Source of the DNA: Chloroflexota bacterium
Lineage (GTDB): Bacteria; Chloroflexota; Dehalococcoidia; E44-bin15
Assembly (NCBI GenBank): GCA_034189655.1
Contig: JAXHUE010000002.1
Location: 32,207 to 96,206, forward strand
DNA length: 64,000 bases
Reading direction: 5' to 3'
The translations under genes were made by a program, and so were the position numbers. Shown here one piece after another: positions 6,207 through 63,900 of this stretch; the first letter of the stretch is position 1, and every line of letters begins with the position of its first letter. The notes beneath the pieces are model-generated. The model saw only the letters and a program-made list of their open reading frames with translations. It searched no databases and had not been told where the DNA came from.

Positions 6207-6233
6207 GAAGGGCCGCCTCTGGGCGGCCCCTTC
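6207..6233. terminator. Bidirectional intrinsic terminator between hisI (+) and rpmE (-)
   Basis: GAAGGGCCGCC-tct-GGCGGCCCCTTC perfect GC-rich hairpin at the convergent junction, flanked by A/T on both sides. Confidence 0.6.
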
Positions 6234-8521: not shown

Positions 8522-10372
8522 ATGACAGAACTAGACCGCATACTACCCCGCGTGACCAGACCCGCCCGCTACACCGGCGGCGAGTGGAACAGCATCATCA
8601 AAGACTGGGAGACCACGGAGGTGAAGGTGGCCCTGTGCTACCCCGACGTGTACGAGATAGGCATGTCCAACCTGGGGCTGTCCGTGCTGTACGACCTGGT
8701 GAACAGGGAGCCCCATGCCCTCGCCGAGCGCGTGTTCGCCCCCTGGGTGGACATGGAGGCCGAGCTGCGGCAGGCCTCTGTGCCCCTGTTCAGCCTGGAG
8801 TCGCGACGCCCCATAGCCGACTTCGATATCATCGGCTTCTCCCTGGGCTATGAGCTCACCTATACCAACGTGCTCACGGTGCTCGATCTCTCCGGGATAC
8901 CGCTGTTCGCCGCCGAGCGGGACCGCTCTCATCCCCTGGTCATCGCCGGGGGGAGCTGTGCCCTAAACCCCGAGCCCATGGCGGAGTTCGTGGACATCTT
9001 CTGCCTCGGCGATGGCGAGGAGGTGCTCCTTGAGCTCATCGATGCCTACAGGCGGTGGCGCTCGGCGGGTGCGGGGCAGCGCGATGAGCTGCTGCGGGGG
9101 CTTGCCGCCATCCGCGGCGTCTATGTGCCCAGCCTCTACCGCACAGACCACGGCGGCGATGACACGCCCTGTACCGTCAGGCCGGCGGCGGACTGGGTGC
9201 CCGCGGTGGTGGAGCGGCGCATCGTGGAGGAGCTCACCCCCACCGTGACCAGGCCCATCGTCCCCTTCGTTGAGACGGTGCACGACCGTGCCGCCATCGA
9301 GATACAGAGGGGCTGCACCCGGGGCTGCCGCTTCTGCCAGGCGGGCACCATCTACCGTCCCCTGCGCGAGCGCCCCCTCGAAGAGGTGATGCAGGCCGCG
9401 GACGAGCTCCTGCACAGTAGCGGCTACAACGAGCTCTCCCTCGTCTCCTTAAGCACCAGCGACTACAGCGAGATCGATACCCTGGTGGGCAGGCTCACCG
9501 AGCGCTACCGGGATGACTGCGTGAAGCTCTCTCTGCCCAGCCTGCACCTGGGCAGCTTCTCGACGAGGCTGATGGACTCCTTCGCCGATGGCAAGAAAGG
9601 GGGCCTCACCTTTGCCCCGGAGGCGGGGAGTGAGAGGCTGCGCTGTGCCGTAAACAAGGTCGTGCCGGAGGAGGAGCTTCTAAAGACCCTCGACATGGCC
9701 CAGGAGCGCGGCTGGGGCAGTGTCAAGCTGTACTTCATGCTGGGCCTCCCCACGGAGACCGAGGGCGACGTGGAGGACATAGTGCGGCTGGTGCGCACCA
9801 TCCACCGCTCGCGGCGGAGGCAGGGGGGCAGGCCGCTGCGGGTGAAGGTGAGCGCCTCTCCCTTCGTGCCCAAGGCGCACACCCCCTTCCAGTGGGTGGC
9901 CCAGGATACGGAGGAGGTGCTCGGGGCAAAGGTCGCCGTCGTGAAGGCCGGGCTGAGGGGGGTGGGGGTGCACCTGTCGTGGCAGGACGCGAGGATGAGC
10001 CTGCTGGAGGGCGTGCTGGCGCGGGGCGACCGACGTCTCTCGCAGGTCATCTACCGGGCGTGGCAGATGGGCTCCCGCTTCGAGGCGTGGAGCGAGCACT
10101 TCGACTACGACCGGTGGCTCCGTGCCTTCGCCGAGTGCGGCCTGGATCCCTCATTCTACGCCCACCGCGAGCGGCCGCTCGACGAGGCGTTGCCCTGGGG
10201 CCACATCGACGTCGGCGTGAGCACGAGTCACTTGAAGAGGGAGTTCTTGAACACAAAAAACGGTGCAGTGACCGAGGACTGCCGCTACGGCCACTGCACC
10301 GCGTGTGGTCTTCAGCGCTGGCACGGAGGGTGCCAGCGGCTCTATCAGAACTCTTCCTCCTCCTCGTCGTAG
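8522..10372 (+). CDS. B12-binding-domain radical SAM protein (TIGR03960-like)
   Basis: N-terminal [23 protein letters not shown], radical SAM cysteine motif CTRGCRFC, about 616 aa. C-terminal tail NSSSSSS arises from a convergent overlap with the next gene. Confidence 0.8.
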
Positions 10373-26209: not shown

Positions 26210-26284
26210 CGGGGCGTGGCGCAGTCCGGTTAGCGCGCAGCGTTCGGGACGCTGAGGTCGGTGGTTCAAATCCACTCGCCCCGA
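26210..26284 (+). tRNA. tRNA-Pro (anticodon CGG)
   Basis: Cloverleaf by hand: acceptor CGGGGCG/CGCCCCG, D-arm GCGC-AGUCCGGUUA-GCGC, anticodon arm CAGCG-UUCGGGA-CGCUG, T-arm GGUGG-UUCAAAU-CCACU, discriminator A, no encoded CCA. Confidence 0.85.
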
Positions 26285-35045: not shown

Positions 35046-36077
35046 ATGTCCACAGAGCGGGAGAAGGCCCTGGAGCTGGCGATAGGGCAGATAGAGAAGC
35101 AGTTCGGCAAGGGCGCCATCATGAAGCTGGGAGAGGTGTCTGACAGGATGGCGGTGGACTGCATCCCCACCGGGGCCCTCGCACTCGACTTCGCCCTGGG
35201 GGTGGGCGGCATACCGCGGGGCAGGATCACCGAGGTCTTCGGGCCAGAGATGGCAGGGAAGTCCACCCTCGCGCTCCATATCATCGCTGAGGTCCAGGGC
35301 CGCGGTGGCACGGCGGCCTACATCGACGTGGAGCATGCCCTGGACCCGTCCTATGCCGCCAACTGTGGTGTCAAGGTAGATCAGCTCTTAATTTCCCAGC
35401 CTGATACCGGGGAGCAGGCACTGGAGATCGCTGAGGCCCTGGTGAGGAGCGGCGCCGTGGACGTGGTGGTCATAGATAGTGTTGCCGCCCTCGTTCCCAG
35501 GGCAGAGCTCGAGGGGGACATGGGGGATGCCCATGTCGGCCTCCAGGCGCGGCTCATGTCCCAGGCGCTGAGAAAGCTCACCGCTGCCATTCATCGGTCG
35601 CGCACCTCGGTGGTGTTCATCAACCAGCTGCGAGAGAAGGTCGGGGTCTTCTTCGGCAACCCCGAGGTCACCCCTGGTGGGAGGGCGCTCAAGTTCTACA
35701 GCTCGGTGCGCATAGACTTAAGGAGGGTGGAAGCCATCAAGGTGGGCTCGGAGACGGTGGGCAGCCGGGTGAGGGCCAGGGTGGTCAAGAACAAGGTGGC
35801 CCCTCCGTTCAAGAGCGCCGAGTTCGATATCATGTTCGACCGGGGGATCAGCAAGGAGGGCAATATCCTCGACCTGGGGGTGGAGTCCGGGGTGGTGAAG
35901 AAGAACGGTGCCTTCTACTCCTACGGTGAGACTCGCCTGGGACAGGGGCGAGAGAGCGCAAAGCACTTCCTCAGGGAGAATAGAGATATCGCAGAGGGGA
36001 TCGAGAGGGACATCCGGGCCACCGCGCTCGGCTACCAGGGCCCTGTCGATACCGCGGTGGAAGAGCTCGCGGAGTAG
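35046..36077 (+). CDS. recA: Recombinase RecA
   Basis: 343 aa. [12 protein letters not shown] Walker A and the full conserved RecA core. Confidence 0.97.
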
Positions 36078-36153
36078 AGAGCGGGCCCTCTGCGCCCTGG
36101 GCATAGACAAAGGCTGGGAGAATGGCATCCTGGCCTTTTTGTGTGTGGGTAAC

Positions 36154-44437: not shown

Positions 44438-45742
44438 ATGGCTAAACTACCGCTGGAAGGCGTGAGGGTAGTGGAGGTCTGCCCCATATGGGCGGGCCCG
44501 TTCGCCTGCATGCTTTTAGCCGACTGGGGGGCCGAGGTCATCCGCGTGGAGTCCAGGTACCACTTCCCGGTGTATACCCGCGGCGTGCTCGCCCGTCCCC
44601 CGATACAGCTCGCAGAGCAGACACCGTCCGGCTATGCCGCCTACTGCCTCGAGGGGTACGACCCTCAAAAGGCGTTGAACCAGTTCGTGCTCTTCAATGC
44701 CCACGCCCGCAACAAGCTGGGGATGACCGTTGACTTGAGGCGGCCCGAGGGCAAGGACATATTCAAGAGGCTGGTCAAGGTGAGTGACATAGTCATAGAG
44801 AGCCAGTCCCCGCGGGTGATGGAGGAGCTGGAGCTCACCTACGACGCGCTCAAGGAGGTGAACCCCAGTCTCATCATGGTCTCGCTGCCCGCCTTCGGGC
44901 AGACCGGGCCCTACAAGTACTACCGGGCGCTGGGGGCCCACCAGGAGGGGTTCGTGGGCCATACCTACCTGCGGGGGTATGCCGACCGCGACCTCAGCAA
45001 CAACGTCACCCTGTACCAGACCGACGAGACCGGCGGGGCCACCTGCGCCTTCGCCGCCCTCATGGCCCTGCACAAGAGGCGGCGCACCGGCGAGGGCATG
45101 TACGTGGACATGAGCCAGTCCGAGGCCACCATCTCCATCCTGGCACAGGCGGTGATGGACTACACCATGAACGGCCGCGTCACGGAGCGGATGGGCAACC
45201 GCGACTACCACGGGGCCATCCAGGGCTGCTACCGCTGCTGGGGCCGGGACGACTGGGTCTGCATCACCATAAACAGCGAAGAGGAGTGGGATGGCTTCGT
45301 GCGCGCCCTGGGCGAGCCCCAGTGGGCCGCGGACGATAAGTTCTCCGACCACGTGCTGCGCCTGAAGAACCACGACGAGCTCGACCGCCACATCGAGGCG
45401 TGGACCCGCCAGCACGAAAAGTACGAGGTGATGCACCTGCTCCAGGCGGAGGGTGTGCCCGCGGGACCGGTGCTGGACGAGCGGGATGCCTACACCGACC
45501 CCCACATGAGGGAGCGGGGTTTCTTCCAGGAGCTCACCCAGGCCGACTGCGGCACCCACCTCTACCCGGGGCTGCCCTGGCGCATGAACAAGACCCCCAA
45601 CGAGGTCAAGAGGCCCCCGGTGCGCTTCGGGGAGCACAACGAGTACGTGTACAAGCAGGTCATCGGGGTGTCTGACGAAGAGTACCAGTTCCTGGAGAAG
45701 GAGGGCCACATCGGCACACACTACATCCCGGAGATGTTCTAG
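44438..45742 (+). CDS. Family III CoA-transferase (CaiB/BaiF), subunit 2 of a tandem pair
   Basis: 434 aa. VVEVCPIWAGPFACMLLADWGAEVIRVE. 15-nt spacer with RBS AAGGAGGAAGG after the previous gene. Confidence 0.9.
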   Translation: MAKLPLEGVRVVEVCPIWAGPFACMLLADWGAEVIRVESRYHFPVYTRGVLARPPIQLAEQTPSGYAAYCLEGYDPQKALNQFVLFNAHARNKLGMTVDLRRPEGKDIFKRLVKVSDIVIESQSPRVMEELELTYDALKEVNPSLIMVSLPAFGQTGPYKYYRALGAHQEGFVGHTYLRGYADRDLSNNVTLYQTDETGGATCAFAALMALHKRRRTGEGMYVDMSQSEATISILAQAVMDYTMNGRVTERMGNRDYHGAIQGCYRCWGRDDWVCITINSEEEWDGFVRALGEPQWAADDKFSDHVLRLKNHDELDRHIEAWTRQHEKYEVMHLLQAEGVPAGPVLDERDAYTDPHMRERGFFQELTQADCGTHLYPGLPWRMNKTPNEVKRPPVRFGEHNEYVYKQVIGVSDEEYQFLEKEGHIGTHYIPEMF

Positions 45743-47505: not shown

Positions 47506-47621
47506 GGTGCCCCCTGCTCTTCGTCCAGCCTGCGGCGGGTATTGACGTGGGTGGTGGCAGGGGATAAGATTAGCTACAGTATGCTCGAACGTTGCCCGCA
47601 GCAATTACGTACGTGCCCGCG

Positions 47622-50600
47622 ATGAGGTACTATCTTGGCATTGACGTCGGCTCGGTCGGCGCCAAGCTGGCCCTGGTCGACGAGGGATACTCCATAGTGA
47701 GGCTCGACGGCGAGAGGATAACCTCCAGCCCCACCGCTGCCGTCGCCTCGCTTATCTCCAGGCTGGGCCGCGATGTCGACCTCGGTGCAGTCGAGGCCGC
47801 CGGCTGCTCCGGCTCCGGGAGGGGAGTGATACCCGCGGACATGGGCTGGGCGGGGTACAGCAGCTCGCTCGCCGTCGCCTCCGGCCTCCTCCACCTCCAT
47901 CCCCAGGCCAGGACCGTCATCCAGATAGGCGGGCAGAGCTCCCTGGTGATAACGCTGGAGGACGGGCTCAAGAAGCCGTGGAAGGTGGCCTCGAACCCCC
48001 TCTGTGCCGCCGGCACCGGCAGGTTCCTGGAGCAGCAGGCCTATCGCCTGGACATCAGCATGGAGGACTTCTCCCGCCTGGCACAGGAGTACAAGGGCCA
48101 GGCGCCGCGGATAGCGGCCCGCTGCAGCGTGTTCGCCAAGACCGACCTCATCCATCTCCAGCAGAAGGGTGTGCCACTGGGGGCCATGCTCTGTGGCCTG
48201 TGCGACAGCATCGCCCGCGGCGTGGCCTCCTTGACCAGGGGCCCCCTGGAGGAGCCGATATATTTCGTAGGTGGGGTCGCCGCCAACGGCGCCATCGTGC
48301 AGGCCCTGGAGGAGGTGCTCTCGGCGAGGGGCGGCCACCGGGTGCAGGTGACCGTTCCCCGGGACTGCCGCCACGTAGAGGCCCTGGGCGCCGCCCTGCT
48401 GGCGCGGGGCTCGGGGAGGCGCTCCACCGTGGCCGCACTGCCCAGGTTGAGCGCCGGGCAGCGCTACTGGGAGCTGCCCCCGCTTGAGAGGCAGGACGGC
48501 CGGGAGGAGTGGCACCGGCCCGATCTATCGCCGCCGTTGGAGGGGTACCTGGGCGTCGATGTCGGCTCCACCAGCACTAAGGCCGTGGTCCTGGACCGCT
48601 CTGGGGGCGAGGTGCTGGCCAAGTGCTACCTCATGACGCAGGGGCGGCCCGTCGATGTCGTCAAGGAGGTGTGCCGCAACCTGCTCCGCGATGTGGGTGA
48701 GGGGGCACACATACTGGGGGTGGGCGTCACCGGCTCGGGCAGGTACCTGGTGGGCAGCTTCATCGGCGCCGACGTCATCAGGAACGAGATCACGGCACAG
48801 ACCAGGGCCGCCGCAGAGATCGACCCCGATGCCGATATCATCGAGATCGGCGGCCAGGACTCCAAGCTGGTCATCAAGAGGAACGGCGTCGTCGTCGACT
48901 ACCAGATGAACAAGGCGTGTGCCGCCGGCACCGGCAGCTTCATCGACGAGCTCGCCGAGCAGCTCGGCGTGTCGGTGAAGAACGGCGACTTCGCCCGGCT
49001 GGCCTTCGATGCCCCCTACACCATAGACCTGGGGTCGCGGTGCGCCGCCTTCATGGGACAGGCCGTGGCCGCGGCGCGGCAGGAGGGGGTCTCTATAGAG
49101 GTGATAGCGGCCAGCCTGGCCAACTCCATCGCCTCGAACTACCTCTCCAAGGTGGTGGGGATGAGGAGGCTGGGGGAGAGGGTGATACTCACCGGGGCGG
49201 TGTTCTATAACGACGCCGTGGTTTCCGCATTCACCCACGCGCTCGAGGGCAGGGAGACCGTCGTGCCCCGGCACAAGGAGGTGAGCGGTGCCATCGGTGC
49301 CGCCCTCCTCGCCAGGGAGGAGATGGTGGGGGGCGGCTCCCGGTTCAAGGGGTTCCGCGAGATAGTCGAGAGCGACTATACGCTGAAGACGTTTACCTGC
49401 AAGCGGTGCGAGAACAACTGCACCATAAGCCGGATGCAGATGCCCAACGAGCCGGCGACATACTACGGGAGCAGGTGCGACCGCTACGACGCCCGCTTCG
49501 ACCAGAAGAAGGTGGAGACCGCCTTTGACGAGCGGGAGAGGCTGCTCTTCGCCGGCGTGAGGGAGGCGACGGGCACCGGGCCCACCGTGGGCATCCCCAG
49601 GGCGCTCATCATATATGACTACGCCCCGCTCCTCATCGGCTTCTTGAGCGAGCTGGGGGCCAGGCCCGTCCTCTCGGGGCGGACCAACAAGCAGGTCATG
49701 GAGCAGGCCGTCGAGCTCAGCTACCCCGATAGCTGCTTCCCCGTGAAGCTGCTGCACGGGCACGTGGCCACCCTCGAAGAGGTCGACTACATCATGCACC
49801 CCTGCGCCATCAGGCTGGGCAGGAAGGAGGGGGATGAGAACCAGAAGTACTCCTGCCCGCTGGTGCAGGCGGCCCCCTTCATCGTGCGCCAGGCATTTGA
49901 CCTGGGGAAGAGGCTGCTGGTGCCTATCATCGACCTGAGCCGCGGCGACGACGATACCATAGAGAGCCTGGCCGACTGTGCCGTCGAGATGGGGTACCGC
50001 CGCCGAGAGGGCCGCCGGGCGGCCATCGCCGCCATGAGGCGACAGCGGGAGTTCGAGGCCAGCCTGGAAGAGCGGGGCAAGGCCCTCCTGGAGGAGCTCC
50101 ACCGCGGCGACAGGCTGGGCGTGGTGTTCCTGGCCCGCTCCTACATGTCGCAGGACTCAGGGGCCAACCTGGGCATCGCCGAGAAGCTGGCCCAGCTCGG
50201 CGTGGTGCCGATACCGCTCGACTTCCTCCCCCTGGCCCAGGTGGATGTCGGCGAGTACTCCGACCGCCCCTACTGGTACTACGAGGGCAAACACATCGCC
50301 GGTGCCGCCCTGGTCGCCCAGGACCCCCAGCTCTACGGGCTGGTGCTCACCAACTTCGGCTGCGGCCCCAACTCCTTCGTGCTCAACATCGTCGAGGACA
50401 TCATGGGGGGCAAGCCCCTGGGCCAGCTCGAGATAGACGAGGACGCCGCGGAGGCCGGCATCGTCACCCGCCTCGAGGCCTTCGTCGATACCATAAAGGG
50501 ATTTGCCTCCTCGGGCAGGTCGGAGCACGTCAGGGCGTGGGACCAGGGTGCCTATCGCTCGGCGCCCACGCTGGTGAACGCGAAGAAGCTGCTCTTGATA

Positions 50601-51770
50601 CCGCGGATGGCCCCCCACGCCGAGGTGCTGGGCGCGGCCATGGAGGCGTTCGGGGTGAGGGCCATGGTCATGCCCGAGTCCAGCGAGCAGTCCCTGCTCT
50701 ACAGCAACAAGGTCACCTCGGGGAGGGAGTGCCTGCCCTACCGCGTCACCCTGGGCGACTTCATCAGGTTCTTCAACGAGAATGGCGCAGACGGCATAGA
50801 CAGGGATGAGGTCGAGGGCTTCATGGCCAGCGCCTTCGGGCCGTGCCGCTTCGGCAAGTACGCCGTGGAGCAGAGGAGGGCCCTCGCCGAGATGGGGTAC
50901 AGCCTGCCCATGCGCACCACGGTATCCAACAATGCCTATCGGGACCTGGGCCTGGGCCCCGCCTTCGAGCGGCTGGCGTGGCGGGGGATCGTCGCCGTAG
51001 ACTACCTGGAGCGGCTCCTGTGGGGCACACGCCCCTACGAGCGGGTGCCGGGCCGTGCCGACGAGCTCTTCGGCGGCTACATGGCCAGGGTCGTTGGGTG
51101 TGTGCGCCGGCGGGAGGACATGGGCCCTGTCCTTAAGGAGGCCGCCAGGGAGTTCTGCGCGCTCAAGGACCCTGCGCTGCCCAGGAGGCCGCTGGTGGGA
51201 ATAAACGGCGAGATATTCCTGCGCGCCAACAAGTTCAGCAATAACGACCTGGTGGGGGAGTGCGAGCGTGCCGGCCTGGAGGTGGTGGTCTCCTCCATGG
51301 GGGAGTGGCTGCGCTACATCCAGCACCGCAACCTGGAGGACGGCTTACAAGACCACAAGGTGAAGAAGGTGGTCACAAGCTACATCAGGAACCTGATACT
51401 GGAGCGCGACGAGCGCTCTGTAGCCGTACACGTCGCGGGCTCCGTGGACGGCGAGGAGCCGTCCATCCACGAGATACTGTCACAGTGCAGCCGCTACCTC
51501 TCCCCGCGGTGCGGCAGCGAGGCAGTGCTCAGCATAGGGGTCGGCGTCGAGTGGATGGAGAGAGCGGACTTCGCCGGCGTCATATCGGTGATGCCGCACG
51601 GGTGCATGCCTGGCGGCATCGTAGCCGCCATGTCCGAGCGCCTGAGCGCCGCCTACCGCAAGCCGTGGATCACCCTCACCTACGACGGGTTCATGGAGAG
51701 CACCAACCCGGAGAGGGTCCACAACTTCGCTGAGGTGATACGGTTCTGCAGGGACGGGGCCTCTCTCTAG
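47622..51770 (+). CDS. Giant fused protein: two BadF/BadG/BcrA/BcrD (HgdC-like activase) ATPase domains plus C-terminal DUF2229/dehydratase-component-like domain
   Basis: About 1382 aa. Domain 1 YYLGIDVGSVGAKLALV...CAAGTGRF. Domain 2 YLGVDVGSTSTKAVVLD...CAAGTGSF (actin-fold ATPase motifs, duplicated). Cys cluster CKRCENNC...C, then an approximately 780-aa Cys-containing C-terminal region. Promoter TTGACG-17-TAAGAT at about 47538. Confidence 0.85.
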   Translation: MRYYLGIDVGSVGAKLALVDEGYSIVRLDGERITSSPTAAVASLISRLGRDVDLGAVEAAGCSGSGRGVIPADMGWAGYSSSLAVASGLLHLHPQARTVIQIGGQSSLVITLEDGLKKPWKVASNPLCAAGTGRFLEQQAYRLDISMEDFSRLAQEYKGQAPRIAARCSVFAKTDLIHLQQKGVPLGAMLCGLCDSIARGVASLTRGPLEEPIYFVGGVAANGAIVQALEEVLSARGGHRVQVTVPRDCRHVEALGAALLARGSGRRSTVAALPRLSAGQRYWELPPLERQDGREEWHRPDLSPPLEGYLGVDVGSTSTKAVVLDRSGGEVLAKCYLMTQGRPVDVVKEVCRNLLRDVGEGAHILGVGVTGSGRYLVGSFIGADVIRNEITAQTRAAAEIDPDADIIEIGGQDSKLVIKRNGVVVDYQMNKACAAGTGSFIDELAEQLGVSVKNGDFARLAFDAPYTIDLGSRCAAFMGQAVAAARQEGVSIEVIAASLANSIASNYLSKVVGMRRLGERVILTGAVFYNDAVVSAFTHALEGRETVVPRHKEVSGAIGAALLAREEMVGGGSRFKGFREIVESDYTLKTFTCKRCENNCTISRMQMPNEPATYYGSRCDRYDARFDQKKVETAFDERERLLFAGVREATGTGPTVGIPRALIIYDYAPLLIGFLSELGARPVLSGRTNKQVMEQAVELSYPDSCFPVKLLHGHVATLEEVDYIMHPCAIRLGRKEGDENQKYSCPLVQAAPFIVRQAFDLGKRLLVPIIDLSRGDDDTIESLADCAVEMGYRRREGRRAAIAAMRRQREFEASLEERGKALLEELHRGDRLGVVFLARSYMSQDSGANLGIAEKLAQLGVVPIPLDFLPLAQVDVGEYSDRPYWYYEGKHIAGAALVAQDPQLYGLVLTNFGCGPNSFVLNIVEDIMGGKPLGQLEIDEDAAEAGIVTRLEAFVDTIKGFASSGRSEHVRAWDQGAYRSAPTLVNAKKLLLIPRMAPHAEVLGAAMEAFGVRAMVMPESSEQSLLYSNKVTSGRECLPYRVTLGDFIRFFNENGADGIDRDEVEGFMASAFGPCRFGKYAVEQRRALAEMGYSLPMRTTVSNNAYRDLGLGPAFERLAWRGIVAVDYLERLLWGTRPYERVPGRADELFGGYMARVVGCVRRREDMGPVLKEAAREFCALKDPALPRRPLVGINGEIFLRANKFSNNDLVGECERAGLEVVVSSMGEWLRYIQHRNLEDGLQDHKVKKVVTSYIRNLILERDERSVAVHVAGSVDGEEPSIHEILSQCSRYLSPRCGSEAVLSIGVGVEWMERADFAGVISVMPHGCMPGGIVAAMSERLSAAYRKPWITLTYDGFMESTNPERVHNFAEVIRFCRDGASL

Positions 51771-53220: not shown

Positions 53221-53340
53221 ATGCTCTCCCCCTCGTCACTCTTGACCTGATGGGTCCATTTTACTTGACAGAACGATGACAATATTATACCATGCCGCTG
53301 TAGAATAATAACACAGGCGTCGTAAAAACCCCAAGAGACA

Positions 53341-53430
53341 CGAAAAAGGCAAACCCTGGGAAATCAGGGGACGCAAAGCTGCGAGTCTACGGCGAAAAAG
53401 GTGCTATGACGGTCGGGCTGCCGAAACTAA
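53341..53430 (+). promoter_or_regulatory. Candidate c-di-GMP-I (GEMM) riboswitch aptamer in the 5' leader of the hybrid kinase gene
   Basis: AAGGCAAACC-CUGG-GAAA-UCAG-GGGACGCAAAGCU matches the Vc2 aptamer core GGGCAAACC-AUUC-GAAA-GAGU-GGGACGCAAAGCC with identical spacing (complementary 4-bp stems around a GAAA tetraloop). The 3' half is a CGGCG...UGCCG-closed helix containing CUAUGA (tetraloop-receptor-like). I could not fold P1 by eye. Confidence 0.6.
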
Positions 53431-53437
53431 AACAGGT

Positions 53438-53480
53438 GAGCCCTCTCAGGGTAGTACTGGGGAGGGCTTCTCGCATTTTA
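53438..53480 (+). terminator. Intrinsic terminator-like hairpin (putative riboswitch expression platform) before the kinase start codon
   Basis: GAGCCCUC...GAGGGCUUC 7-bp stem followed by UCGCAUUUUA. 20 nt upstream of the ATG at 53501. Confidence 0.5.
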
Positions 53481-53500
53481 CTGCAGGGGGGTCGGTAATA

Positions 53501-56500
53501 ATGAAGAGAGGGGATGTGAGCAAGCAGGACCAGGGAGTTGAGGGCAGGAAGAGGGAGGCAAAGCGGGAGGAGGAGGTCCCGGAAGAGGGGCTTCTGGAGC
53601 GGGTTGAGAGCAGTGCCGAGGAGCTCGAGCGCTCGGAAGAGCGATACCGGGAACTTGTAGAGAACATAAACGACGGCTATCTGGTGGTGAGGGGGCGAAA
53701 GGTCGTTTTCGCCAACAGGCGGTGCGCCGACCTCCTGGGATACCCGGTGAGGCAGATCGTAGGGAAGAACTTCGCAGACCTCGTAGCCGAGGAGTCGCGT
53801 GAGGGGGCGGCAGAACTCTACAAGAGGAGCATGAGCGGGGAGCGACTGTCAGAGCGCCGTGAGGCCTTATTACGGCGAAAAGACGGTACAAAAGTACCGG
53901 TCGAAATGACCCTAAAGGACATCACCTATGATGGCAGGCCCGCTGTCTCTGCCATGTTCTGTGATATCACGGAGAGAAAGGGAGTGGAGCGTGAGCTGTG
54001 GCGGAGGACGTTTGAGCTCGGCGAGCGAGTCAAGGAGCTGAACTGCCTCTACAGCCTCTCCAATCTGGTGCAGCGGCGGGATATAGCGCTCGCTGAAGTA
54101 TTTCAGGGCGCGGTCGAGCTCGTCCCCCCGACATTGCAGTACCCTGATGTGGCGTGTGCCCGGCTGCTCATCGAGGGCCAGGAGTACAGGACGGGCAACT
54201 TCGTCGATACCGAATGGAGGATAAGCTGCGATGTCACTGTGCATGGCGAAGTCATAGGGAAACTGGACGTCTGTTACGCAGAAGAGGTACAGAAGAGCTA
54301 CGGGGGCGTATTCCTTCCAGAGGAGAGGGCACTGCTCCATGCCGTCTGCGGGCGGCTGGGTGAGACCATAGAGAGACGGCGGGCGGAGGGGGAGATTAGG
54401 GCCTCGAAGGAGAAGTACCGCCACCTGCTCGAGGAGATACACGATGGCTACCTGGTGGTACAGGGGGGAAGGGTGGTCTTCGCCAACACGCGCCTGGGGG
54501 AGATACTGGGCTACGGCCCTGAGGCGCTGGGGCGTCCCGTCAATGAGTTCATGCCAGAGTATCTACTGGGCCGGGCGACCGAGCTACGGGAGAGGGTGGT
54601 AAGCGGCGAGGACATATCAGAGCCCATGGAGACCACGGTGCTCACCAAGGACGGCGCCGAGCTGCCCATAGAGGTCAGTATTAAGACGACAGAGTACGAG
54701 GGGAAGCTGGCCATCGCTGTGCTGGTGAGGGACATCTCCGAGCGCAGGCGCGCCGAGGAGATGCGCAGGCGCGAGGAGGAGAAGTACCGCTACCTGTACG
54801 AGTATCAGCCTGCGGTGAACTTCATTATTGGCAATGATGGGACACTGGTGGACATCAATCAGGCGGGCCTGTCCACGTTTGGCTATACGAAGGATGAGCT
54901 CGTGGGCAGGGGTGTCCTCGACCATGTCGTCCCCGAGGAAAGGGAGCGCGTGGCACAGCAGATGGCCAGGGCATTCCAGGGTGAACACACGCCGGGGCTG
55001 GACGTGGATATCTACGCCAGTGACGGCTCGGTCCACACCATGTGGTTCTCACCGGGCCACGTGATCCCGGCGGATGGGGCGCAGCAGGCCATCATGCTCG
55101 CCACCGGTGTCGACGTCACCGAGCGTAAAATGGCGGAGGAGGAGCGCAGGCGCGCGGAGGAGAGGTACCGCCAGCTCCTGGAGGACATAGACGACGGCTA
55201 CTTCGTGGTCCAGGACGGAAAGATAGTCTTTGCCAACACCAGGTGCACCGAGATCCTGGGCTACGGGCCGGAGGCCATTGGGGAGTCTGTGGCCACCTTC
55301 GTGCCGCCGGGACAGGAGCATCACATAGCCGCCTTCGGGGAGGCCTTCTCCGGAGAGGGTGAGGTGGCGCTGCACGACGAGATGTCGGTGCTCACCAAGG
55401 ATGGCAGCGAGGTCCCGGTGGAGATACACGCCAGGAGGGCGCTGTACATGGGTCGGCCCGCCCTCACCGTCGTCATCAGGGACATCTCGGAGCGCGCGCG
55501 CGCGGAGCGGGAGCTCAAGGCATCGGAGCAGAGGTACAAGGCGCTCCTGGAGGACATAAACGACGGTTACTTCGTGGTCCAGGACGGCGTGATAGTGTTC
55601 GGCAACGGGCGGCTGGCCGAGATGTTCGGATATTCGCTCGATGAGGTGCTGGGCAGCCGGCTCGTCGACATTGCGCTGGACAGCGCAAAGGATATGGTGG
55701 CGCTCATGATGTTCGCCTTCGAGCAGGGAGGGGCCGTCCCGGAGCGCGTGGAGATTACCGGGACCGATCCCAGGGGGGGCGGCGATATCACCATAGAGAT
55801 AAGGATGAGCGTCATCGACTACCTGGGACGGCCGGCCATAAACGGCATCATCAGGGACATTACCGACCGCAAGCGCGTTGAGATGGCGCTTCAGGCGGAG
55901 AAGGCCTACTCCCAGTCGCTGGTGCACAGCCTGCCCGATATGCTGCTCACCATAGACCCTGAGGGCAAGATAAGCTATGCCAACGATGTGATGGTGGTCT
56001 TCACTGGCGTAGAGCTGGAGCAGCTCGTGGGGAGGCCCCTGGGGCAGGTACTGCAGGAGATAAATATCCTGGACGCCCGGACGGCCACCCTCGTTACCAG
56101 GCGCATGAAGAAACGGTTGAAGACAGGCCTGCCGGCGCGGGGCGTAGAGCTGGAGATGAGAAATGCCAGGGGTGAGTGGGTGAAAGGCCTGTACTCGACC
56201 TCTGTGATAAAGTCCCCCAGCGGCGAGATCCTGGGGCAGGTGGTGGTCATCAGTGACATCACCGACCGCGTGAAGGCAGAAGAGGAGCTCAAGCGGTCGG
56301 AGGAGAAGTACCGCAGGCTGGTGGAGGACATAAACGACGGCTACTTCGTGCTCCGCGATACCACCATCCTCTTTGCCAACGAGAGGATGGCGGAGATGAT
56401 GGGCTACGGCCTCGATGAGATCGTCGGGGAGGAGTTCCTCAGGTTCCTCGCACCAGAGGCGATAGAAGTGCCCACGCAGGTACACCAGAGGAGCATGGCC

Positions 56501-59448: not shown

Positions 59449-59835
59449 GTGGTGGAGGGACACGGTGTGAAGAAGACTATTCTGGTGGTGGAGGATAACC
59501 CCAAGAACATGAGACTTATGAGGATGATCTTGAGTGCAAACGGCTATGACGTGCTGGAGGCAACCGACGGCGAGGAGGGGCTGAAGATGGCCCAGGAGGG
59601 GAGGCCTGATCTCATCGTACTTGATATTCAGCTCCCCAAGATGGAGGGCACCGAGGTCGCAAAGCGGCTCAGGGCCATGCCGGAGTTCGACGGCATTCCC
59701 CTGATAGCGCTCACCGCCTATGCCATGAAAGGCGACCAGGAACGGATACTGGAGGCCGGTTTCGATAGCTACATGTCGAAGCCGATAGACACCCGCGAGT
59801 TACCCTCTCTAGTAGCGCAGATGCTCTCGCGGTAG
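59449..59835 (+). CDS. Single-domain CheY-like response regulator
   Basis: ILVVEDNPKN...DLIVLDIQLP...K receiver motifs. 128 aa. GTG start 6 nt after the kinase stop. Confidence 0.85.
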   Translation: MVEGHGVKKTILVVEDNPKNMRLMRMILSANGYDVLEATDGEEGLKMAQEGRPDLIVLDIQLPKMEGTEVAKRLRAMPEFDGIPLIALTAYAMKGDQERILEAGFDSYMSKPIDTRELPSLVAQMLSR

Positions 59836-59869: not shown

Positions 59870-61099
59870 TCATTCCAGCATATGCTCCAGTATGTAGCGG
59901 TCGATGTCCTCCTCTGGTATCCCCAGCAGGTCTCTCAGTATCTCATCGTTGTGCTCGCCGAGCATGGGTGCAGACTTGTGGGTACTGCCCGGCGTGCGCG
60001 ATAGCTTTATGGTGACGCTGTCGTAGGTGGTGCGGCCGGCCTCAGCGTGGTCGAGGCGGACGTAGTGCTCCCTGGCCTTGATGTGGGGGTCATGGACCAG
60101 CAGGTCTTGGGAGGTCTGCACCACGCCAGCGGCGACACCCCCCATCTGCATCAGCATCATCACCTCCTCTGCCGTCCTCTCCGCGGTCCACTCTGCCACC
60201 AGCCGGTCCAGCTCCTCCTCGTTGGCCTTGCGGCCCAGGTGGGTGGCGAACCGCTCTTCCCTGGTCCAGGATGGGTTGCCGATGACGTTGCAGAAGGCCT
60301 GCCACTCCCCGTCGCTTGCGACGGCGATGGCGCACCAGCGGTCGTCTCCCTTGCAGGGGTAGGTGGAGTGGGGGGCGGCGTGGGGCACGCGGTTGCCCTG
60401 GCGGGTCTGCACCCTCCCGTTTACGGTGTAGTCCAGGACGGCGCTGTCCAGCGTGGCCACGGTGGACTCGTACTGGGACACCTCGATGAGCTGTCCCTTG
60501 CCCGTCTTGCGCCGGTGGCGCAGCGCCGAGACCATGGCCAGTACGGTGTGGTACGGGTTGGGGGCATAGTCCGGGTAGTTCACACCGGTGCCGATGGGGA
60601 TGCGGTCGGGGTAGCCTGAGAGATAGGTGAACCCGGTGAGCGACTGGAGCGCCACCCCGAAGCCCACGTAGTCGCGGTGCGGCCCCCACAGCCCCCACAT
60701 CGGCATCCTGACCATGATGATATCGGGCTTTACCTTCGCCACCTCTTCATAGGAGAGTCCCCAGTCCTCCATCACGTGGGGGACGAAGTTCTCGATGACG
60801 ATGTCGCTCACCTTGATGAGCCGCCTGGCTACCTCCCGCGCCTCGGCGAAGTTCATGTTCAAGGCGATGCCCTTCTTCCCGCTGTTCAAGTTGTTGGCCC
60901 AGCCGCCCACGTTGACCCCGGCCTTATCGGGCACGGTGGGCGCGGCCAGCCGCAGCGCATCGATGTGGGCAACGGACTCTATCTTGATCACCTCGGCGCC
61001 GAACTCGGCGAGGACGCGGGTGGGGATGGTGCCCGCCGCGTACCAGGTGAAGTCACATACCCTGATCCCCTCGAAGGGAAGTCTTGTCTTCCGCTCCAT
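59870..61099 (-). CDS. Family III CoA-transferase (CaiB/BaiF), subunit 2 of second tandem pair
   Basis: IRVCDFTWYAAGTIPTRVLAEFGAEVIKIE. Start at MERKTRL (ATG 61099); the track ORF has a 43-codon extension. Confidence 0.85.
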   Translation of the reverse strand: MERKTRLPFEGIRVCDFTWYAAGTIPTRVLAEFGAEVIKIESVAHIDALRLAAPTVPDKAGVNVGGWANNLNSGKKGIALNMNFAEAREVARRLIKVSDIVIENFVPHVMEDWGLSYEEVAKVKPDIIMVRMPMWGLWGPHRDYVGFGVALQSLTGFTYLSGYPDRIPIGTGVNYPDYAPNPYHTVLAMVSALRHRRKTGKGQLIEVSQYESTVATLDSAVLDYTVNGRVQTRQGNRVPHAAPHSTYPCKGDDRWCAIAVASDGEWQAFCNVIGNPSWTREERFATHLGRKANEEELDRLVAEWTAERTAEEVMMLMQMGGVAAGVVQTSQDLLVHDPHIKAREHYVRLDHAEAGRTTYDSVTIKLSRTPGSTHKSAPMLGEHNDEILRDLLGIPEEDIDRYILEHMLE

Positions 61100-61110
61100 G
61101 ACGACCTCCT

Positions 61111-62397
61111 TTATATGATGCCCCGTGAGGTGAGCAGCTCGAGCTCCTGGCGAGAGAGGCCCAGCTCCTTGTGGTATACGTCCAGGTTGTGCTCGCCCAC
61201 CAGGGGTGGTCTCCCCTTTACCTGCCATGGGGTCTCTGAGAGCCTGTAGGGAGGCCCGGCGTACTTTATGGTCACGCCCAGCTCGGGGTGGTCCACCTCG
61301 ACGAAGTAGTCGCGGTCATTCAGGTGAGGGTCGTTGACCAGGCCCGCCGGGTCGCTCACCGGGGCGCATATGAAGTGCTGGCGCTGCCCCTCCTCGTAGA
61401 GCTCGGCCACGGGGTGTGCCGCCAGGAACCTCTTGAACACCTGGTCCAGGTGTTCCATGCGCATCATCCGCTCCAGGAAGGCGTCGGTGCCGATTAAGCT
61501 CATCATGGCGGTGCGGTCGCCCACAGACTTGATGAAGTCTTGCCACTCCTCGTTCATGAGGTCTTCGGCCATGCCCTTGGAGTCCATCCACTTCACCACG
61601 TTTTCCCAGTCGATGAGGAGCAGCCACAGCATGTAGCCGTCCTTGCACTGGTAGACGTCCCTCCCCGGGACGCGGATGCCCAGTCCCCCTACCGGCGTCC
61701 CGCCGAAGCCCCAGCGCTTCCTGATCTCATTGCGCAGGTCGTAGAACTGCATCGCCGTCTCCATGGCGATGGTGGTGCACTCCTGCCGCGAGATGTCGAT
61801 GGCCTGCCCCTCGCCGCTCACGTCCCGCTCGAAGAGGGCGATGGAGATGCCGGCGGCGCCGTGGAGGGAGCCCATGTAGTGTGACTGGTAGCCGTACGTG
61901 CGGTAGGGTGCCGCATCGGGAAAGCCCCCCAGGTACATGAGACCGCCCATGGCCACGACGACGATGTCCGGGGCCTTGAAGTCGCGGAAGGGGCCGCTCT
62001 GTCCGAAGCCGCTTACGGAGCAGAAGATGAGCCCCTGGTTTATCTCCTTCAAGACGTCGTATCCCAGGCCCATCTTCGCCATGTGCCCCGGGGGGAAGCT
62101 CTCCACCAGGACATCGGCGCCCTCCACCAGCCGCTTCAAGAGCGCGCGGCCGTCTGCGGTATCGAGGTTCAGCGTGATCCCGCGCTTGCTCCGGTTCAAG
62201 GCGAAGAAGTGAAGGCTCCGCTCCGGGCCGGGGATATCGTGCACGAATGGCCCCATGCCCCGTGATAGGTCACCGCCTGGGGGCTCCACCTTGATCACGT
62301 CGGCGCCCAGCTCGGCGAGGAGCTGGCTGGTGTAGGCGCCGACGTCATCGGCGAGGTCGAGCACCCTGATGTCGCCCAGAAGTGTCTCCTGTAGCAC
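61111..62397 (-). CDS. Family III CoA-transferase (CaiB/BaiF), subunit 1 of second tandem pair
   Basis: IRVLDLADDVGAYTSQLLAELGADVIKVE. 428 aa. 11-nt spacer to the downstream paralog. Confidence 0.9.
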   Translation of the reverse strand: MLQETLLGDIRVLDLADDVGAYTSQLLAELGADVIKVEPPGGDLSRGMGPFVHDIPGPERSLHFFALNRSKRGITLNLDTADGRALLKRLVEGADVLVESFPPGHMAKMGLGYDVLKEINQGLIFCSVSGFGQSGPFRDFKAPDIVVVAMGGLMYLGGFPDAAPYRTYGYQSHYMGSLHGAAGISIALFERDVSGEGQAIDISRQECTTIAMETAMQFYDLRNEIRKRWGFGGTPVGGLGIRVPGRDVYQCKDGYMLWLLLIDWENVVKWMDSKGMAEDLMNEEWQDFIKSVGDRTAMMSLIGTDAFLERMMRMEHLDQVFKRFLAAHPVAELYEEGQRQHFICAPVSDPAGLVNDPHLNDRDYFVEVDHPELGVTIKYAGPPYRLSETPWQVKGRPPLVGEHNLDVYHKELGLSRQELELLTSRGII

Positions 62398-62832: not shown

Positions 62833-63900
62833 ATGACAGTATCAGGCAACATTCCCCGCGGCCGGGAGGTCGTACTCCAAGGTGGCGAGAGGTTCGGCCT
62901 GCCACTCCTTGAGGTGGGCAGGGCTCTCGTGTCGCTGGCCGATGTTCAAAGCCTGCTCATGCTCACCATAGCGAAGGCCGTAGAGGGCATAGAATCGGCT
63001 GACGCTGGACTGATCTGCCTCTACGATAACACACAGGGCAAGCTTATGGTGAAGGCCGCCTTCGGCTACGGCCAGGAGGTCTGGAATATATCGGCCAACC
63101 CGGAGAGGGGCGGCGCTCCAGGGATGGTGTATAAGACTCGCCGCAGCAGGATATGGTCGTCGCCCGAAGAGGTCAGCGGGCTGATAGCCAGCCTGGACAC
63201 CTGGGACCAGCAGCACCTCACAAGGGCGCGGAGGAGGCTCCCGCGTCCCACCAGCGTGGTGTGCAGCCCTCTTATGGCCAAGGACAGGTTCATCGGGTGT
63301 ATTCACCTGGAACACTACACCAACCCTGCCCCGTTTTCCATGTGCGACCTCGCACTGCTGCACTCGTTCGCAGAGCAGGTATCACTTGCCGTAGAAAACG
63401 CCATGCTCTTCAAGGAAATGCAGCGCAAAGAGACGACGTGGTCCGAGCTGCTCTACTGGCTGCTCATCGCCCGGGAGTACGAGCGAAGGCGTATCATGTC
63501 GGTGCTGGAGGACGATGTCAACCAGGTGCTGGAGGTCCTGGACGCAGAGCTGGAGGTCCCGGAGAGTGAGCTGAAAGGCCTGGCCGGGCAGCACCAGGGC
63601 ATGAGGGCGATGCGGGACAACCTGTATAAGATAGTGGACGAGATGCATAGCCTGTCACCGAGCACGAGGGTTGTGCCTCTGGGTGGAGAGGAGGAGAGCT
63701 ACGATGGTCTCACCTCAAGGGAGAAGCAGATAATCCGGCTGGTGGCGGAGGGGAGGACCAACAAAGAGATCGCCGACCTTCTGTGCATAAGTATAAGGAC
63801 CGTGCAGTCCCACCGCGCCAACATAATGGAAAAGCTCGAGATGCATGACCGCACTGAACTGGTGCGCTATGCCATTCGTAAGGGCCTTGTCACCCCTTAG
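62833..63900 (+). CDS. GAF-domain plus LuxR-type HTH transcriptional regulator
   Basis: N-terminal GAF-like region. C-terminal LTSREKQIIRLVAEGRTNKEIADLLCISIRTVQSHRANIMEKL is the LuxR/FixJ HTH signature. Confidence 0.85.
   Translation: MTVSGNIPRGREVVLQGGERFGLPLLEVGRALVSLADVQSLLMLTIAKAVEGIESADAGLICLYDNTQGKLMVKAAFGYGQEVWNISANPERGGAPGMVYKTRRSRIWSSPEEVSGLIASLDTWDQQHLTRARRRLPRPTSVVCSPLMAKDRFIGCIHLEHYTNPAPFSMCDLALLHSFAEQVSLAVENAMLFKEMQRKETTWSELLYWLLIAREYERRRIMSVLEDDVNQVLEVLDAELEVPESELKGLAGQHQGMRAMRDNLYKIVDEMHSLSPSTRVVPLGGEEESYDGLTSREKQIIRLVAEGRTNKEIADLLCISIRTVQSHRANIMEKLEMHDRTELVRYAIRKGLVTP

Follow-up and report, generated by a model that had tools for sequence, protein, structure and literature searches.

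A canonical class I c-di-GMP aptamer in the leader of a PAS hybrid histidine kinase operon in an uncultured Chloroflexota bacterium, with a candidate attenuator downstream

The leader of a very large hybrid histidine kinase gene in an uncultured Chloroflexota bacterium almost certainly contains, as judged from covariance-model alignments, a c-di-GMP-sensing class I (GEMM-I) aptamer at 53339-53426. Positions are those of the window, i.e. the whole 64-kb stretch of DNA that was analysed, and the features discussed are collected in Table 1. We consider a canonical aptamer in the leader of a two-gene kinase operon, in conjunction with a proposed attenuation mechanism, to be the joint best explanation of the locus, with a probability of roughly 0.8; the individual parts of this explanation differ in strength and are graded separately below. 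GEMM-I is among the commonest riboswitch classes, and the element described here is a real, ordinary instance of this well-known class that leaves the knowledge of the class unchanged. What it adds is that the kinase and response regulator operon of an uncultured member of the Chloroflexota is placed in the c-di-GMP regulon.

Table 1. Positions of the aptamer, its functional nucleotides, the downstream RNA structures and the surrounding genes
Feature	Position	Strand	Basis or remark
PleD-like REC-GGDEF diguanylate cyclase, 479 aa	51781-53220	-	Divergent from the kinase; NCBI record MDY6906799.1, 'diguanylate cyclase [Chloroflexota bacterium]'
Candidate promoter region of the kinase leader	53265-53306	+	Sigma-70-like matches
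c-di-GMP-I (GEMM-I) aptamer, complete (predicted)	53339-53426	+	Rfam and our own covariance model
P1, 5' strand (CG)	53341-53342	+	Pairs with 53422-53423; position covaries among 116 aptamers
G53348, equivalent to Vc2 G20	53348	+	Alignments; column G in 111/116, A in 5/116
First hairpin	53349-53374	+	Covariance-model alignments, covariation
A53375, equivalent to Vc2 A47; position is G in the GGC variant	53375	+	Column A in 116/116
P2 hairpin	53377-53419	+	Alignments; covariation
Alternative 'anti-terminator' helix (predicted)	53400-53458	+	53400-53422 with 53435-53458; dG -20.2 kcal/mol
C53421, equivalent to Vc2 C92	53421	+	Alignments; column C in 110/116
Hairpin H3, GC-rich, about 10-12 bp, candidate attenuator/terminator stem	53438-53469	+	dG -19.5 kcal/mol, z -2.9
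UUUU run	53476-53479	+	About 6-7 nt past H3; can pair with AAAA 53429-32, extending H3
Kinase translation signals	53486-53503	+	Shine-Dalgarno (SD)-like GGGGGG 53486-91; ATG start 53501-03
Hybrid histidine kinase, 1980 aa	53501-59443	+	About 9 PAS, GAF, HisKA, HATPase_c, 2 REC (Pfam); NCBI record MDY6906800.1, 'PAS domain S-box protein [Chloroflexota bacterium]'
Single-domain response regulator (REC)	59449-59835	+	Starts 5 nt past the kinase stop

The preliminary description of this DNA had proposed a GEMM-I aptamer on the basis of a 35-nt core, AAGGCAAACCCUGGGAAAUCAGGGGACGCAAAGCU, at 53346-53380, and had suggested searches with the Rfam families of both c-di-GMP riboswitch classes. These searches, together with the ligand contacts described below, bear the proposal out. 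When the whole window was scanned against Rfam, a single riboswitch match was obtained, which covers the full model of RF03167 with 69.1 bits (E 2.9e-14; gathering score 59), and on the full element a second member of the same clan lies above its own cut-off and is masked by clan competition. On the core alone (53345-53421), RF01051 scores 61.6 bits (E 1.5e-12), above its gathering score of 35. The scan, which comprised all 4227 Rfam families, returned no match to c-di-GMP-II (RF01786) anywhere in the window. We also built a covariance model of our own, R1, on 14 unrelated aptamers taken from metagenomes, the window being left out; this model matches the window with 84.3 bits (E 5e-18) and without gaps, and its sole match in the 64 kb is the same 88 nt. 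By R1, the window aptamer ranks 30th of 116 metagenome aptamers. All 23 of its 23 modelled pairs are standard, and, wherever a column is conserved in 90% or more of the 116 aptamers, it has the consensus nucleotide. Neither the Rfam scan nor R1 detected a second, tandem aptamer in the window. The 3' end of the aptamer lies 75 nt ahead of the kinase ATG on the same strand and promoter-like sites lie upstream, in agreement with its earlier placement in the leader of the kinase, which is about 200 nt long.

In the Vc2 aptamer of Vibrio cholerae, the ligand is contacted by G20, A47 and C92 (PMC4744006, PMC5888326), and G20 contacts one of the two guanines of c-di-GMP (PMC5888326, PMC4744006). All three nucleotides have their counterpart here (Table 1); the sequence around position 47 reads ACGCAAAGC, and C53421, in the role of C92, would pair in Watson-Crick fashion with the second guanine of c-di-GMP. 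In addition, C53372 corresponds to C44, in a column conserved in all 116 aptamers, and the bulged G53412 to G83, in a column conserved in 109 of 116; with both nucleotides present, they are predicted to form the inter-helical tertiary pair C44-G83. The hallmarks of the class, i.e. an AAA linker between the hairpins ('virtually always AAA'), a GAAA loop with its receptor and a first hairpin in two parts (PMC1950547), can likewise be located. The linker is A53375-A53377. The first hairpin consists of a 2-bp GC/GC helix (53349-50/53373-74), an AAA/GAC internal loop and a stem capped by GAAA (53360-63) that had been described as having 4 bp and in fact has 6 (53354-59/53364-69). P1 comprises only 2 bp (C53341-G53423 and G53342-C53422). 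P2 is made up of 53377-80/53416-19, 53382-84/53413-15, 53385-87/53408-10 and, distally, 53392-94/53402-04, all of them standard pairs. In the covariance-model alignment, its closing helix is AGCU (53377-80)/GGCU (53416-19) and not the CGGCG/UGCCG helix proposed initially: CGGCG (53390-94) lies in the tetraloop receptor and P2b, while UGCCG (53419-23) spans the last base of P2, the junction with C92 and the 3' strand of P1. The tetraloop receptor, for which a receptor-like CUAUGA had been noted, is formed by CUACG (53387-91) with CUAUG (53404-08). A receptor of the CUAC form is found in 35 of 121 sampled aptamers, versus 66 with CUAA, and we therefore regard it as a normal variant. Because the full binding signature is present (G20/A47/C92, C44/G83, the docked GAAA loop and the AAA linker), the window aptamer should bind c-di-GMP as Vc2 does.

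The likeness to Vc2, which belongs to RF01051, extends to the two-hairpin fold with its GGCAAACC...GAAA...GGGACGCAAAGC core, the same three ligand contacts, the C44/G83 bridge, the GAAA loop with a receptor in P2 and the location in a 5' UTR (PMC4744006, PMC1950547). However, the host phylum here is the Chloroflexota, P1 is merely 2 bp long compared with Vc2 and RF01051, the downstream gene encodes a giant hybrid kinase, and the receptor is CUAC, not the CUAA of the archetype. Position 91, which is an A in Vc2, is a G here, as in the family consensus.

Comparison with relatives supports the fold as well as the sequence. Class I aptamers were gathered from metagenomes by means of a pattern in which position 47 was left open. 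In the resulting alignment of 116 aptamers, which was fitted to the model and hence is biased toward it, while the class itself is independently established, 95.8% of cells hold standard pairs versus 24-43% when the partner columns are slid; moreover, double changes number 522, and the observed values were not attained in any of 500 shuffles. This covariation supports P1 (helix 1), the first hairpin (helices 2-3) and P2 (helices 4-6). Position 47 is A in all 116 aptamers, including 16 tandem partners that were outside the selection made by the search pattern.

Closer relatives of the locus were obtained only at the level of strains. Using a 90% protein cluster, and near-identical strains in ENA assemblies of TANS21-1 samples, we found five strain variants that are 0.4-1.4% diverged; in these, the aptamer and H3 are invariant and six sites vary elsewhere in 340 nt. 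The sole SNP in the expression platform is G53483A, which is present in L210 and L211. With a divergence of at most 1.4%, the strain set is uninformative for covariation. Searches for orthologous loci on genome contigs with the cyclase gave only generic matches to the GGDEF domain (at most 50% identity over the domain); when 80 cyclase-matched loci were scanned with our own model, aptamers were present in two Bacillota loci only, where they precede GGDEF genes in the sense orientation, and synteny was not shared. Similarly, the N-terminus of the kinase matched only generic multi-PAS proteins (at most 47% identity over 27% of the query), and a BLAST comparison of the leader with 120 metagenome loci matched the aptamer and nothing of the platform. 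Thus, the cyclase, kinase, metagenome and strain searches returned no diverged orthologue of the leader.

Pfam confirms the 1980-aa PAS hybrid kinase and the divergent REC-GGDEF cyclase that had been described from the open reading frames. In the kinase, PAS_9 is found in nine stretches that are followed by GAF, HisKA, HATPase and two REC domains, and the ATG at 53501 is the identical start call in two independent assemblies. The kinase gene and the stand-alone REC gene behind it probably form one two-gene operon. In the cyclase, the phospho-acceptor D53, the RxxD I-site (RRED) and the GGEEF motif are all intact; from these motifs and the resemblance to PleD, the protein is probably active and controlled by phosphorylation. 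The adjacency of the two divergent genes suggests a link between kinase and cyclase, and from this adjacency we speculate that they are part of a feedback loop. Upstream of the aptamer, three promoter-like sites are found versus 0.4 expected in shuffled sequence. The best sigma-70-like match is TTGACA (53265-70)-17 nt-TACCAT (53288-93), which agrees with the consensus at 10 of 12 positions. The TAGAAT previously taken as the -10 element is indeed at 53301-06, where it is an alternative candidate -10, although the best match lies elsewhere.

Between the aptamer and the kinase start codon, the expression platform contains a stable hairpin, H3, and a helix that competes with it. A stem-loop followed by a U-tract had been proposed for 53438-53480. 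The hairpin holds up; the adjoining U-tract does not. The tail after H3 reads UUCUCGCAUUUU, with only three U in its first 8 nt, the U-run does not abut the stem, and a consensus terminator scan did not call H3 with its tail. By comparison, three clear terminators elsewhere in the window, i.e. those that follow recA and the gene ending at 10345 and the one at 6209-6231, have U-runs adjoining the stem. These three were picked with our own hairpin-plus-T scan of the window, which served only this purpose and is useless as a statistic because it gives fewer matches than shuffled sequence. Around H3, AAAA (53429-32) and UUUU (53476-79) are arranged as in L-shaped terminators. We also considered that H3 might be a repeated REP-like element and rejected this idea, as the hairpin is unique in the window.

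The 5' side of the alternative helix consists of the 3' half of P2, the junction and the 3' strand of P1, and the helix is mutually exclusive with the folded aptamer and with H3. P2 alone has a predicted energy of -10.2 kcal/mol. In minimum-energy folds, the alternative helix is found, in part or in full, solely for transcripts ending at 53444-53464, and H3 wins once its 3' arm has been made. The duplex energy of the alternative helix beats 98.4% of shuffles (p 0.017) but only about 90% of genomic 26-mers (p 0.10). In every full-length ensemble, H3 has an advantage of 4-7 kcal/mol over the alternative helix, and, owing to the free toehold at 53444-49, H3 may form with or without ligand. For every long transcript, the kinase SD is predicted to be unpaired both with the aptamer folded and without it, and equilibrium ensembles in which the aptamer was or was not enforced showed no ligand-dependent change in SD exposure. 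We therefore downgraded a thermodynamic translational switch, and a kinetic, i.e. transcriptional, switch is left as the sole option.

Based on these predicted structures, we tentatively suggest, at odds somewhat short of even, that the leader functions as an OFF attenuator in which c-di-GMP promotes formation of H3 and thereby lowers kinase synthesis. In this model, in the absence of ligand, 53400-53422 would pair with 53435-53458 as the transcript emerges from RNA polymerase. This alternative helix would block H3, and transcription would read through into the kinase gene. By contrast, with c-di-GMP bound, P1 and P2 would be locked, H3 would form and attenuation would occur near the U-run at 53476-79. 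As a consequence, less kinase would be made at high c-di-GMP. The kinase could plausibly phosphorylate the neighboring PleD-like cyclase; if it does, a negative feedback loop would be closed by the RNA, a speculation prompted by the adjacency of the genes.

This arrangement has a parallel in the Firmicutes aptamers Cd1 and Bc1, in which a separate hairpin lies behind the aptamer and its 5' strand offers the 3' strand of P2 an alternative partner; however, the U-tract here is weak and about 6-7 nt off the stem. Cd1 of C. difficile is an OFF switch. The ON-type design, in which the terminator overlaps P2 and which was described for 78 of 322 GEMMs (PMC1950547), is not the arrangement found here. 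We regard as doubtful the more far-reaching reading that the riboswitch, the 9-PAS kinase, the REC protein and the cyclase constitute a closed circuit whose platform would be unusual, namely a terminator in which the U-tract is displaced, or else a relay of four helices that leads to the ribosome-binding site. In such a circuit, c-di-GMP made as a result of phosphorylation of the cyclase by the kinase would act via the RNA on kinase synthesis. If true, this would mean that a two-component pathway is subject to feedback at the RNA level, in a phylum in which c-di-GMP signalling has hardly been studied.

A translational ON switch operating by a relay of helices is, on the folding predictions, an unlikely alternative to the OFF attenuator, even though it accounts for the poor U-tract and gives every helix a role. 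In this relay, the ligand-locked P2 would allow H3 to form and to sequester the G-rich strand 53459-69, whereas without ligand the alternative helix would free the G-rich strand, the SD would be sequestered by the pairing CUUCUCGCA(53465-75):UGC.GGGGGGUC(53482-93), and translation would be off. The minimum-energy fold of 53330-53500 (-52.9 kcal/mol) does contain both the alternative helix and the SD-sequestering helix, the latter has an energy of -12.3 kcal/mol and is stable for its composition (z -3.2), and the SD is paired to about 98% in a transcript that stops at 53500 and on which the alternative helix is imposed. However, the effect is gone as soon as the transcript reaches 53520 or beyond, where every state leaves the SD unpaired to 90% or more and a competing helix, CAUUUUACUG(53474-83):CGGUAAUAAUG(53493-503), takes over. 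Moreover, G53483A in the two strain variants breaks one pair in both the SD helix and the competing helix without compensation, and the G-rich and C-rich runs in this region favor chance complementarity.

It is also conceivable, but rather improbable, that the aptamer binds its ligand next to a constitutive H3 and has little or no regulatory effect, or works in a different way, for instance through Rho access or RNA stability. That H3 is thermodynamically dominant in all states and followed by a poor U-tract agrees with this reading, and there is a precedent among validated GEMM-I RNAs, some of which bind the ligand without regulating; an example is Bc1 of B. thuringiensis, which binds c-di-GMP while downstream expression is unchanged and thus illustrates that predictions of regulation can be unreliable (PMC11218506). 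Against it, the aptamer has all of its conserved positions intact and is invariant among the strains, and working switches are usually marked by an equally stable helix of this kind, which overlaps the aptamer as well as H3. As an overall estimate, we place little output, or an output of some other kind, between improbable and simply unlikely. The OFF attenuator is the mechanism that we put forward as the most likely.

The nature of the ligand could be questioned because the top Rfam family on the full element is not RF01051 but RF03167, 'c-di-GMP-I-GGC', in which case the ligand specificity would be altered or unknown. 'GGC' reportedly denotes positions 20/47/92 (Weinberg et al. 2017, PNAS). 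The consensus lines of the two families, ACGCGAAgC for RF03167 and ACGCAAAgC for RF01051, reveal a sole conserved difference in the core. A GGC variant is expected to have G at position 47 (ACGCGAAGC), and A53375 does not match this expectation. In addition, the RF03167 consensus is without the P2 tetraloop receptor, which the window retains, and on the core 53345-53421 RF01051 is the best family. The RF03167 score, although above gathering and the best of the clan on the full element, is not diagnostic: in 20 metagenome loci, RF03167 outscores RF01051 for 15 of 24 aptamers with A47, and its top rank in the window is therefore cross-talk between models. This cross-talk is driven by the modelled P1 and the 5' flank, i.e. 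the short P1 of the RF03167 model and the flank cacgaaAAAGGC, both of which the window shares. That related models recognize the same RNAs has been described (PMC9943018). Accordingly, the window aptamer is not a member of c-di-GMP-I-GGC, a reading to which we attach only a very small probability. More generally, because canonical A47 aptamers also receive the RF03167 label, surveys by best bit score over-count GGC variants; position 47 itself must be inspected, and a best match to RF03167 is not evidence of a GGC variant.

The G20A change is said to lead to cGAMP binding (Kellenberger 2015, Nelson 2015). Sensing of c-AMP-GMP (3',3'-cGAMP) as by the GEMM-Ib riboswitch of Geobacter, which shares the fold and the Rfam family and would fit the 5 of 116 relatives with A at position 20, is highly improbable for the window aptamer, as G20A confers cGAMP binding (PMC7288161) while the window has G53348 at this position and its neighbor is a GGDEF cyclase with an intact GGEEF motif. 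The canonical c-di-GMP aptamer is therefore retained as the reading of 53339-53426.

Finally, we asked which genes follow aptamers of this class. Among the genes downstream of 96 metagenome aptamers, of which the first 400 aa were surveyed, those for surface or secreted proteins predominate, and a PAS domain occurs once, in a PAS-GAF-GGDEF-HD-GYP protein. Gene families including PAS domain, histidine kinase and GGDEF proteins were listed as GEMM-regulated in 2007 (PMC1950547). Thus, with PAS in 1 of 96 genes of the sample but already in the 2007 table, a kinase target is uncommon yet not new. The host of the kinase operon is a Chloroflexota MAG, and its 109-kb contig (NCBI proteins MDY69067xx) also bears recA.

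In the Rfam clan competition run on 20 metagenome loci, 15 of the 24 class I c-di-GMP aptamers were assigned to RF03167, the GGC variant family, with scores above the gathering score (in L096, L102, L104, L107, L109, L110, L111, L118, L123, L128, L143, L146, L149, L152 and L154). Position 47 (Vc2 numbering) is the canonical A throughout the aligned aptamers, and the RF03167 threshold does not tell variant from canonical RNAs.

At position 20, five aptamers in the metagenome loci carry A for G, i.e. the c-AMP-GMP-type signature (A20 in the table below). All five share a contig with a G20 aptamer and, for four of them, a G20 partner lies on the same strand at most ~200 nt away. These A20/G20 pairs may be two-ligand tandem arrangements. 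Many metagenome contigs contain two class I aptamers, mostly on the same strand and ~100-300 nt apart, while the members of some pairs are 1-3 kb apart (e.g. L098, L157, L101 and L111); the two-aptamer contigs are L098, L095, L157, L181, L136, L142, L135, L101, L111, L176 and L198. Tandem GEMMs were described in 2007, and the metagenome aptamer pairs are consistent with this (PMC1950547).

Among 96 sampled genes downstream of aptamers, the sole PAS protein is a 974-aa PAS-GAF-GGDEF-HD-GYP protein in L171, the ORF of which begins 29 nt downstream of the 3' end of a class I aptamer. Class I aptamers were also observed in two Bacillota MAG loci, i.e. L004 and L007 (Syntrophothermus sp. and an unclassified Bacillota). 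Because both are in sense orientation and ~1.1 kb upstream of a matched GGDEF domain, they are probably in the leader of the matched GGDEF gene. Other RNAs matched in metagenome loci are a NiCo riboswitch ~200 nt from an opposite-strand c-di-GMP-I aptamer, a group II intron D1-D4 fragment and a pemK RNA.

Across five strain variants, the leader of the hybrid kinase gene in the window has a single polymorphism 3' of the aptamer, G to A at 53483 (L210 and L211). This substitution disrupts one predicted pair in each of the two candidate SD/AUG helices without compensation. Four further variable sites are clustered at 53221-53261, adjoining the start of the divergent cyclase gene. The annotation of ENA scaffold_409 (L001) has a 176-aa gene on the strand opposite the kinase, which in this scaffold is interrupted by a stretch of N starting at about 55288; the antisense ORF is probably a gene-calling artefact.

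The signalling genes are flanked by three family III CoA-transferase genes. A 1392-aa protein with two BcrAD_BadFG ATPase stretches and DUF2229 resembles the activases that serve CoA-dependent dehydratases or reductases and, together with the three CoA-transferase genes, makes up an acyl-CoA metabolism neighbourhood. The window also encodes a 355-aa LuxR-type regulator, in which the domain match covers the C-terminal HTH only and the N-terminal 280 aa are uncharacterised. Finally, a perfect palindromic hairpin (GGGGCCGCCUCUGGGCGGCCCC) looks like a bidirectional terminator because it has U-rich tails on either strand.

Coordinates of aptamers, other RNAs, genes and terminators in the window and in the fetched loci (L-numbers)
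Feature	Coordinates	Strand	Remark
A20 aptamer	L166:2266-2382	-	
A20 aptamer	L093:3097-3188	+	
A20 aptamer	L124:1517-1604	+	
A20 aptamer	L096:5286-5374	+	
A20 aptamer	L169:7415-7519	-	
Class I aptamer	L171:4131-4221	-	
PAS protein ORF	L171:1182-4103	-	
Class I aptamer	L004:2772-2845	+	
Class I aptamer	L007:2816-2891	+	
NiCo riboswitch	L118:1716-1810	+	RF02683, 64 bits
Group II intron D1-D4	L107:1538-1596	-	36 bits (Rfam)
pemK RNA	L086:4107-4185	+	57 bits (Rfam)
Palindromic hairpin	about 6209-6231		
Second strong terminator	about 10259-10301	-	after gene ending at 10345
tRNA-Pro	26210-26284	+	anticodon CGG; sole tRNA of window
recA	35046-36077	+	MDY6906785.1
Textbook terminator	36109-36148		after recA; AAAGGCUGGGAG...CCUGGCCUUUUUGUGUG
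CoA-transferase	44438-45742	+	
1392-aa protein	47592-51770	+	
Antisense ORF	53912-54442	-	
CoA-transferase	59870-61228	-	
CoA-transferase	61111-62397	-	
LuxR-type regulator	62833-63900	+
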